From the IMG/VR virus record IMGVR_UViG_2563366998_000006: a stretch of DNA of 41,043 nt; one strand, given 5' to 3'. Below, piece by piece: positions 14,829-17,203 of the stretch; the stretch's first letter is position 1, and every line of letters starts with the position of its first letter. Below the pieces are notes generated by a model. The model was not told where the DNA came from. It was given only the letters and a program-made list of their open reading frames with translations, and made no database searches. The stretch is from a virus. Its lineage: Duplodnaviria; Heunggongvirae; Uroviricota; Caudoviricetes. A program made the position numbers and the translations under genes.

Positions 14829-15833
14829 TTAGCTGTCTCTATATCTTTTGAGTTCATCATAATTTGCCTGACTCAATTTTATCACAATTTCGCATTTGTT
14901 GTCAGTGAGAATTACAGGCTTATTTGACTTTTCGTCTCCAATAGCTCCACGCATTATTTTCAACTTAAAATTATTGTCGTTATCTGCCACTTCAATTGTA
15001 AGCGCGCTTTCAGCTGCTTTAGGAGTTGGTTCAAATTGAGGGTCAATCTGGAAACCATTAAGATTAACAAAATCGACAAACGTTCCCTTACATTTGTGTG
15101 AATCAGTCAGGCATGAGTCAATTATTTTTGAAATATCCTCTATCTTAACGGACTTATTTCCGTGTTTATCTTTTGATTTTTTTTCCAGTAAGGATTTAAC
15201 TTCGTTGTCAATAGTATCACGCAGTACACGACCGAGTGAGTTTTTACTAGCAAAAATATCTATAGCACTGAATAATTGCTGAATGCTTCTTTTATTGTCC
15301 GAATCATGTCGGCAACCTAATGAGTCTTTGAAAAAATCGCTTTTAGATTTACCTTGCAAGAAATGTACATATGAGTCACCCTTGTTTTCTGGATAACTGG
15401 CTTCGAATAAAGTTAAATCGAACATCGCAGCCTGCCGTAAGGCATCGGTATTAATTGGATTTAATCTTGTTGGGGTCAACTTATCCGAATCAAAGTCATA
15501 GGCGCTTTGTTTATCAACCATTACGATTAGAAGTTTCCCCAAATCCTCTGGTTCGGTAGACTTATAGTGGATGAAAACAACGCTCCCCCCCTGAAGTTGG
15601 GCAACTCTCGATTCGTTATTAGCATTATGTTTAAGCTTCTCTATTATAGCTCTAGATAAATCAATGAATTCATTATTTTTATTAATGTATTTTTTTAGGA
15701 TCGTAGGAATGGATGAAGGGTTGTGATCTGAGTCTAGGAAGTTATGAAATTTGTTTTTTCGGCTAAATTTTTTCTCAATTCTGGTTATGAATTCAGATGT
15801 GACTTCATTTTTTAGATCCCAAACTTCACCTAA
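14829..15833 (-). pseudogene. 3' portion of an IS5-disrupted gene encoding a zinc-ribbon + NdpA/YejK-like protein
   Basis: Frame open from 15833 to the stop at 14829-14831 with no ATG/GTG/TTG for ~97 codons after the IS5 junction; motifs GGSVVFIHY and FLQGKSKSDFFKDSLG recall the NdpA/YejK family. Confidence 0.7.
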
Positions 15834-17028
15834 GGAAGGTGCGAATAAGCGGGGAAATTCTTCTCGGCTGACTCAGTCATTTCATTTCTTCATGTTTGAG
15901 CCGATTTTTTCTCCCGTAAATGCCTTGAATCAGCCTATTTAGACCGTTTCTTCGCCATTTAAGGCGTTATCCCCAGTTTTTAGTGAGATCTCTCCCACTG
16001 ACGTATCATTTGGTCCGCCCGAAACAGGTTGGCCAGCGTGAATAACATCGCCAGTTGGTTATCGTTTTTCAGCAACCCCTTGTATCTGGCTTTCACGAAG
16101 CCGAACTGTCGCTTGATGATGCGAAATGGGTGCTCCACCTTGGCCCGGATGCTGGCTTTCATGGATTCGATGTTGATGGCCGTTTTGTTCTTGCGTGGAT
16201 GCTGTTTCAAGGTTCTTACCTTGCCGGGGCGCTCGGCGATCAGCCAGTCCACATCCACCTCGGCCAGCTCCTCGCGCTGTGGCGCCCCTTGGTAGCCGGC
16301 ATCGGCTGAGACAAATTGCTCCTCTCCATGCAGCAGATTACCCAGCTGATTGAGGTCATGCTCGTTGGCCGCGGTGGTGACCAGGCTGTGGGTCAGGCCA
16401 CTCTTGGCATCGACACCAATGTGGGCCTTCATGCCAAAGTGCCACTGATTGCCTTTCTTGGTCTGATGCATCTCCGGATCGCGTTGCTGCTCTTTGTTCT
16501 TGGTCGAGCTGGGTGCCTCAATGATGGTGGCATCGACCAAGGTGCCTTGAGTCATCATGACGCCTGCTTCGGCCAGCCAGCGATTGATGGTCTTGAACAA
16601 TTGGCGGGCCAGTTGATGCTGCTCCAGCAGGTGGCGGAAATTCATGATGGTGGTGCGGTCAGGCAAGGCGCTATCCAGGGATAACCGGGCAAACAGACGC
16701 ATGGAGGCGATTTCGTACAGAGCATCTTCCATCGCGCCATCGCTCAGGTTGTACCAATGCTGCATGCAGTGAATGCGTAGCATGGTTTCCAGCGGATAAG
16801 GTCGCCGGCCATTACCAGCCTTGGGGTAAAACGGCTCGATGACTTCCACCATGTTTTGCCATGGCAGAATCTGCTCCATGCGGGACAAGAAAATCTCTTT
16901 TCTGGTCTGACGGCGCTTACTGCTGAATTCACTGTCGGCGAAGGTAAGTTGATGACTCATGATGAACCCTGTTCCATGGCTCCAGATGACAAACATGATC
17001 TCATATCAGGGACTTGTTCGCACCTTCC
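15834..17028 (-). mobile_element. IS5 insertion sequence, complete
   Basis: 1195 bp; terminal inverted repeats GGAAGGTGCGAATAAG (15834-15849) and CTTGTTCGCACCTTCC (17013-17028); flanked by a 4-bp CTAA duplication at 15830-15833 and 17029-17032. Confidence 0.95.
15980..16996 (-). CDS. insH: IS5 transposase InsH
   Basis: Translation matches InsH ([37 protein letters not shown]...); canonical 326-aa start is the internal ATG at 16960, the ORF track begins 12 codons earlier. Confidence 0.95.
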
Positions 17029-17203
17029 CTAATCGATAATCAAATGCTCTTGAATCATTTTTTTCAAGATTTGCTGTTACAGCACCAATAGGAAAGTACG
17101 ATTGTTTGCCCAGCACTACAACATGAGGCGTGGCACCGCATTTATCGCAAGCTACAGTTGGGTCGTCAAGAACATTGCCACATTCTAAACAAGTTATATC
17201 CAT
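17029..17203 (-). pseudogene. 5' portion of the IS5-disrupted gene: N-terminal zinc-ribbon segment
   Basis: ATG at 17203-17201; MDITCLECGNVLDDPTVACDKCGATPHVVVLGK (CxxC...CxxC); frame reads in phase across the IS5 junction into 15829 and below. Confidence 0.7.

Follow-up and report, generated by a model that had tools for sequence, protein, structure and literature searches.

The closest described counterpart of the locus considered here is the anti-phage system DS-1 (system D390), which consists of the proteins WP_000355468.1, the product of gene 1, and WP_000150292.1 (DefensePredictor, DeWeirdt et al., Science 2026, PMC13092281; Table S8 and the tested-unit table). Assayed in MG1655 on a low-copy plasmid, together with its native upstream region (PMC13092281), DS-1 lowered the plating efficiency (EOP) of Bas1 by 7.6 logs, Bas26 by 2.7, Bas3 by 1.7, T3 by 1.7, and T5 by 1.0 (PMC13092281, Table S7). 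Here we describe a copy of this cassette, with the genes DS-1A and DS-1B, in the Caudoviricetes record IMGVR_UViG_2563366998_000006, a stretch of 41,043 nucleotides referred to below as the window. A recent insertion of the insertion sequence (IS) IS5 into DS-1A, where it occupies a CTAA site at codon 58, has very likely disabled the DS-1 system of this prophage.

The organization of DS-1 is reminiscent of another recently described type of defense. In the PANGU systems, a YejK-like nucleoid-associated protein (NAP) is bound to the nucleoid and is freed when phage nucleases degrade the host DNA, upon which it binds to a domain of its partner that is acidic and mimics DNA, and brings about abortive infection (bioRxiv 10.64898/2026.04.06.716658). 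Type II PANGU is formed by the NAP Pag2A and by Pag2B, in which an acidic N-terminal "DMK" domain is combined with a transmembrane domain at the C-terminus; for the E. coli type II system, both genes are needed, and neither alone is protective or toxic (bioRxiv 10.64898/2026.04.06.716658). DS-1, compared with it by architecture only, is likewise a bicistronic unit with a YejK-like NAP as first component, and the partner may be alike in its acidic N-terminal part and C-terminal hydrophobic helices. At the same time, DS-1A has an extra N-terminal zinc ribbon, which is not mentioned for PANGU in the preprint, and the published phage spectra are T4 and Bas34 for PANGU and Bas1, Bas26, T3, and T5 for DS-1. 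Inactivation of immune genes by mobile elements is known as well: insertions of IS1, IS2, IS5, and IS10 into cas genes abolish immunity, and IS5 was found at YTAR sites there too (Nat Commun 2023, PMC10359306). In both cases the element lies in the coding sequence of a defense gene, but the cas insertions were selected by self-targeting toxicity, whereas there is no evidence of selection at DS-1A.

IS5 is recognized by the 4-bp duplication that it leaves at YTAR sites (PMC10359306; PMC5009759), and in the window this duplication is perfect; the parts of the insertion are the following.

15830 to 15833, unstranded: left copy of the target-site duplication, CTAA, fitting YTAR; a single CTAA stands there in IS-free genomes.
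15834 to 17028, minus strand: IS5 element, 1195 bp, complete, with 100% full-length identity to annotated IS5 copies.
15834 to 15849, unstranded: IS5 terminal inverted repeat on the 3' side of the transposase gene, GGAAGGTGCGAATAAG, matching the other end at 15 of 16 positions.
17013 to 17028, unstranded: IS5 terminal inverted repeat on the 5' side of the transposase gene, the reverse complement of GGAAGGTGCGAACAAG.
15980 to 16996, minus strand: IS5 transposase open reading frame (ORF) insH/ins5A, 338 aa, with the Pfam domains DUF772 and DDE_Tnp_1.
17029 to 17032, unstranded: right copy of the target-site duplication, CTAA.

The element is complete and canonical, as a preliminary description of this DNA had stated for its length, terminal repeats, and insH gene. 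Its first letters are GGAAGGTGCGAATAAG, and at its other end stands GGAAGGTGCGAACAAG in reverse complement, these two sequences forming the imperfect 16-bp inverted repeat, and CTAA lies directly outside both ends. Over all 1195 bp its nucleotide sequence is 100% identical to copies in many complete E. coli genomes, which are annotated as "IS5-like element IS5 family transposase". The transposase frame is uninterrupted from its first ATG (an alternative start lies 12 codons inside), contains both Pfam domains at full length (DUF772, E=3.7e-21; DDE_Tnp_1, E=5.3e-35), and is co-directional with the disrupted DS-1A. In length, repeats, YTAR duplication, and DDE transposase this copy is like IS5 of E. 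coli (IS5 family, IS5 group); the element itself is identical, and only the insertion site is new.

Deletion of IS5 and one CTAA in silico produces a 1176-nt ORF of 391 codons on the minus strand, which starts with the ATG at 17203, stops at 14829-14831, and reads ...AFDYRLGEVWDLKNEV... across the joint. The in-frame restoration proposed in the preliminary description is thereby borne out at the protein level, the restored product being identical at 391 of 391 positions to the annotated gene of an IS-free strain and to WP_000355468.1 (100%). Comparison with relatives lacking IS5 further demonstrated that the flanks are continuous and that the repeats and the duplication had been called correctly: several genomes contain the flanks 1-15833 and 17033-41043 with 100% identity, and in NZ_CP082827.1 the two abut exactly, at 3374863/3374864. 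The 312-nt excised junction is found uninterrupted and 100% identical in 106 of the 5,426 complete E. coli genomes. These IS-free sites carry a single CTAA at the insertion position, and several prophage backgrounds and cassette alleles (99.7-100% identity) contain such an empty site, O104:H4 and O103:H2 among them. When the excised window (39,844 bp) was compared base by base with the prophage locus of strain SCAID WND2-2021 (NZ_CP082827.1; 39,844 bp), one mismatch was observed, an agreement with an IS-free strain far beyond chance; strains MS20675 and MS14387 likewise carry the IS-free prophage. The single difference, C here and T there, is at window position 30995, in the tail tape-measure gene.

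The insertion allele itself was not encountered elsewhere. The IS5/flank junction is covered in 0 of the 5,426 complete E. coli genomes, and the exact 32-nt junction was not found in the GTDB representative genomes or in the JGI metagenome contigs. Since the duplication is perfect, the flanks are one base off an IS-free prophage in 39.8 kb, and the allele is present in none of the genomes searched, the sequences indicate a recent and strain-specific transposition, in line with the recent event that had been suggested from the clean duplication. The event requires no adaptive explanation.

The preliminary description had left the broken gene unnamed; its identity as DS-1A follows from several lines of comparison. 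The restored protein scores 451.4 bits against the NCBIfam equivalog NF053868 ("DS1_1_antiphage, nucleoid-associated anti-phage protein"; cut-off 330). It has a CxxC...CxxC zinc ribbon N-terminal to an NA37 domain (the YejK nucleoid-associated protein family; Pfam aa 64-376, E=1.2e-23) and matches the YejK crystal structure 9be2_A with E=1.2e-9. DS-1B is identical at 404 of 404 positions to the downstream gene of an IS-free strain and scores 375.2 bits against the NCBIfam equivalog NF053869 ("DS1_2_antiphage"; cut-off 315). By sequence, then, the restored DS-1A together with DS-1B is the validated anti-phage system DS-1: relative to the published system (PMC13092281, NF053868/NF053869), the proteins, the gene order, and the 2-nt spacing are the same, and the difference is that DS-1A is split by IS5 and the copy is hence predicted to be non-functional. 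Neither protein has a match in PADLOC-DB v2 (2023), a database older than DS-1; the reading of this blank as "not defense" was not adopted, the database predating the system. The native genes and the remains of DS-1A are arranged as follows.

17006 to 17203, minus strand: DS-1A 5' fragment (native DNA 17033-17203), a 65-aa ORF with residues 1-59 including the zinc ribbon, then KVRTSP and a stop from the IS5 end.
14829 to 15833, minus strand: DS-1A 3' fragment, codons 58-391, with most of the NA37/YejK-like domain and without a start codon.
13612 to 14826, minus strand: DS-1B, intact, 404 aa, 100% identical to WP_000150292.1, starting 2 nt after the DS-1A stop.
17229 to 17256, minus strand: promoter-like site upstream of DS-1A, TTGATA-16-AAAAAT, a consensus match only.

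The break at codon 58 falls inside NA37 or at its edge, because Pfam starts the domain at aa 64 and HHpred places it at aa 42-382 (DefensePredictor supplementary tables, PMC13092281). The frame entering the 3' fragment from IS5 meets a stop at 15873-15875, and no ATG, GTG, or TTG occurs beyond it until 15542, where a TTG lies 97 codons from the junction, in agreement with the earlier claim that this fragment has no start for about 97 codons. Because the 5' piece encodes only 65 aa and the 3' piece has no start over that distance, DS-1A is very probably null in this prophage, and the preliminary description of the gene as currently inactive is supported to the same degree.

The consequences can be outlined by analogy with PANGU. 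We propose that an IS5 copy transposed into the CTAA site, splitting the YejK-like NAP into the zinc-ribbon peptide and a start-less 3' fragment without at least the first third of NA37, and that functional DS-1A would not be made. Because the NAP and the membrane partner are both required in type II PANGU, the DS-1 defense of this lysogen has probably been lost. The missing function would be that of the sensor: DS-1A would normally reside on the nucleoid, be freed when a phage degrades the host DNA, and engage the acidic N-terminal domain of DS-1B, whose C-terminal hydrophobic helices would act at the membrane and abort the infection. The main consequence of the insertion is the probable loss of a prophage-encoded defense, beyond the loss of an unnamed ORF.

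The structure of DS-1B was modeled from a 51-sequence alignment of its homologues. In the AlphaFold (AF2) model (mean predicted local distance difference test score, pLDDT, 85.5), an alpha/beta N-terminal domain at about residues 1-210 is followed by long helices. The N-terminal part (residues 1-215) is net acidic at -8 (family median -9, values from -19 to -1), and the family conserves three hydrophobic segments, 269-284, 291-305, and 367-383, that lie between hydrophilic helices. Such an architecture is compatible with the description of Pag2B, but membership in PANGU does not follow from it. No Pfam domain was found in DS-1B, and fold searches returned no significant structural neighbor. 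The top non-significant fold matches are alpha-pore-forming toxins (AhlB/MakA/SmhB, ClyA) and CorA-type channels, which have the same general layout. In Serratia marcescens and Pseudoteredinibacter, homologues of DS-1B at about 30% identity have an NA37 gene directly 5', and the neighbors of these pairs include BstA, AbiEii, and AAA_15/21 genes. The NA37/DS-1B pairing is old.

Whether DS-1B is silenced by polarity, as the preliminary description held probable, depends on signals that conflict, none of those seen in the sequence being strong on either side. The untranslated stretch of 1153 nt from the transposase stop to the DS-1B ATG favors polarity, and a C-rich, G-poor stretch at about 15650-15784 of the sense strand (C 0.23-0.28, G 0.04-0.09) would suit loading of Rho. 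Arguing against it, the sense strand between IS5 and DS-1B has no predicted intrinsic terminator, and the DS-1B ATG is preceded, about 50 nt upstream, by an extended -10 promoter-like site:

14905 to 14876, minus strand: promoter-like site with TG extension, CTGACA-18-TGaTAAAAT, inside the 3' end of DS-1A, a consensus match only.

This site could keep DS-1B transcribed despite IS5. Promoter-like matches in this AT-rich DNA are not above expectation, numbering 12 compared with 8.9 +/- 2.7 in shuffled sequence.

Other lesions of the cassette were surveyed by inspection of 86 of the 107 cassette-bearing E. coli records. Disrupted DS-1A genes were seen in 13 of them, which represent 12 strains. 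ISKpn26 has entered DS-1A at a CTAG site in strain JB2 (window 15652-15655), and IS1, with a 9-bp duplication, in isolate AF5 (15543-15551). A T8 tract (15176-15184) has gained or lost one T in four strains of different backgrounds, and the further indels are the loss of one T from a T7 tract, of one or two Cs from a C7 tract, and of a G at 14917, and the gain of an A at 15013. For DS-1B, the only broken copy is the second, plasmid-borne one of MS 69-1, which has two homopolymer deletions. In terms of independent events there are about 10 in DS-1A versus 1 in DS-1B (binomial p ~0.006), and 5 versus 0 when homopolymer events are set aside; YTAR sites are equally common in the two genes (24 in DS-1A, 23 in DS-1B), and homopolymers of at least 7 nt number four in DS-1A and two in DS-1B. 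This asymmetry is suggestive only, and as evidence of selection it was downgraded because most of the frameshifts lie in the T8, T7, and C7 tracts, which are hotspots of both mutation and long-read error, and because 86 of the 107 records were inspected. That inactivation in natural E. coli preferentially strikes the sensor gene DS-1A rather than the effector DS-1B, as the IS5, ISKpn26, and IS1 insertions and at least six frameshift alleles might suggest, is a tentative idea that we consider unlikely; if true, it would mean that a nucleoid-bound sensor is costly or self-triggering (e.g., when the prophage is induced or DNA is damaged), or that DS-1B is worth keeping for a function of its own.

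Two of the surveyed strains deserve separate mention. In MS 69-1, the second Q-DS-1 region, with the frameshifted DS-1B, is located on the 64-kb circular NZ_CP146678.1, "plasmid unnamed3", which could represent a phage-plasmid, a prophage that has excised, or a product of the assembly. In strain S1-ZIM-01-A (NZ_CP145671.1), both ORFs are intact and an IS1 precedes the DS-1A start by about 60 nt, at a site equivalent to window 17260-17270 and just upstream of the promoter-like -35.

Several points weigh against the conclusion that DS-1 has been disabled by the IS5 insertion. The requirement for both genes is a result for PANGU-Ecu, and DefensePredictor assayed DS-1 only as a whole unit; the insertion junctions are known from the assembly alone; and a 237-aa product begun at the TTG at 15542, without the first 154 residues, is formally possible. 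A different role for the element could be envisaged, in which the insertion is regulatory and alters the expression of an AT-rich neighbor, with DS-1B expressed alone and having its own function. IS5 is known to alter neighboring expression at bgl, flhDC, and glpFK. The G+C content of the cassette (35% versus 50% for the window) is typical of silenced foreign DNA, and both the promoter-like site in front of DS-1B and the absence of a predicted terminator behind IS5 would permit such expression; in the survey, moreover, DS-1B is almost never and DS-1A often broken. However, the insertion lies within the coding region and not in a control region, no function is known for DS-1B alone, the lesion asymmetry is confounded by the homopolymer tracts, and single genes of type II PANGU neither protect nor harm the cell, which makes a regulatory insertion improbable.

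The remaining explanations concern the origin of the junctions. Repeats are a classic source of misassembly, IS5 is present in multiple copies in E. coli (median 2 per genome, maximum 43 places), and the junction occurs in no other record searched, so that a repeat copy misplaced by the assembler has to be considered; yet a misjoin would not yield a perfect 4-bp YTAR duplication at both ends together with seamless flanks, and we regard such an artifact as highly improbable. It is scarcely credible that the IS-bearing state is ancestral and that the IS-free genomes arose by precise excision. Nothing specific speaks for it, other than that precise excision would likewise leave a single CTAA, while precise excision of IS elements is rare, and the empty site is spread over 106 genomes with several backgrounds and alleles in contrast to the unique IS allele. 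Disruption of DS-1A by a recent IS5 transposition accordingly remains the preferred reading.

IS5, DS-1, and the knock-out of immune genes by IS elements are all already known; the case is ordinary biology, and no new kind of element or mechanism is shown. Its chief use is practical. A natural DS-1A knock-out that is one base off IS-free prophages provides a near-isogenic pair for the study of DS-1 in its native prophage, and the same pair could reveal independent expression of DS-1B. For inventories of defense systems, annotation pipelines may count the broken DS-1 locus as present, or miss it.

The window (1-41043) consists essentially of one complete prophage, which is integrated beside ybhC and has the order ybhC, int/xis, regulatory and replication genes, Q, DS-1, lysis genes, HK97-type head, contractile tail, and, at the right end (38281-41043), the O-antigen glucosylation genes gtrA/gtrB/gtr. 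The DS-1 cassette lies between the Q antiterminator and the holin (17495), on the minus strand and antisense to the late genes.

13261 to 13632, plus strand: antiterminator Q gene, convergent to DS-1B, with a 21-nt overlap at the 3' end of the latter.

Among 50,697 phage genomes, the cassette had no megablast match and no close DS-1A homologue was found, tblastn returning only NA37 genes of about 20% identity from Pseudomonas phages; the cassette is thus known only from prophages in bacterial genomes. Rfam gave nothing real in 13000-18000 and no family for 17267-17343. This latter stretch of about 77 nt, between DS-1A and the holin, is about 90% conserved in some 2,500 E. coli genomes including K-12, and a strong terminator-like hairpin followed by a T run lies within it on the plus strand (17321-17342). 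It is probably a lambdoid late-operon leader (pR'/tR'-like), in which case the DS-1 cassette would lie between Q and the promoter that Q targets.

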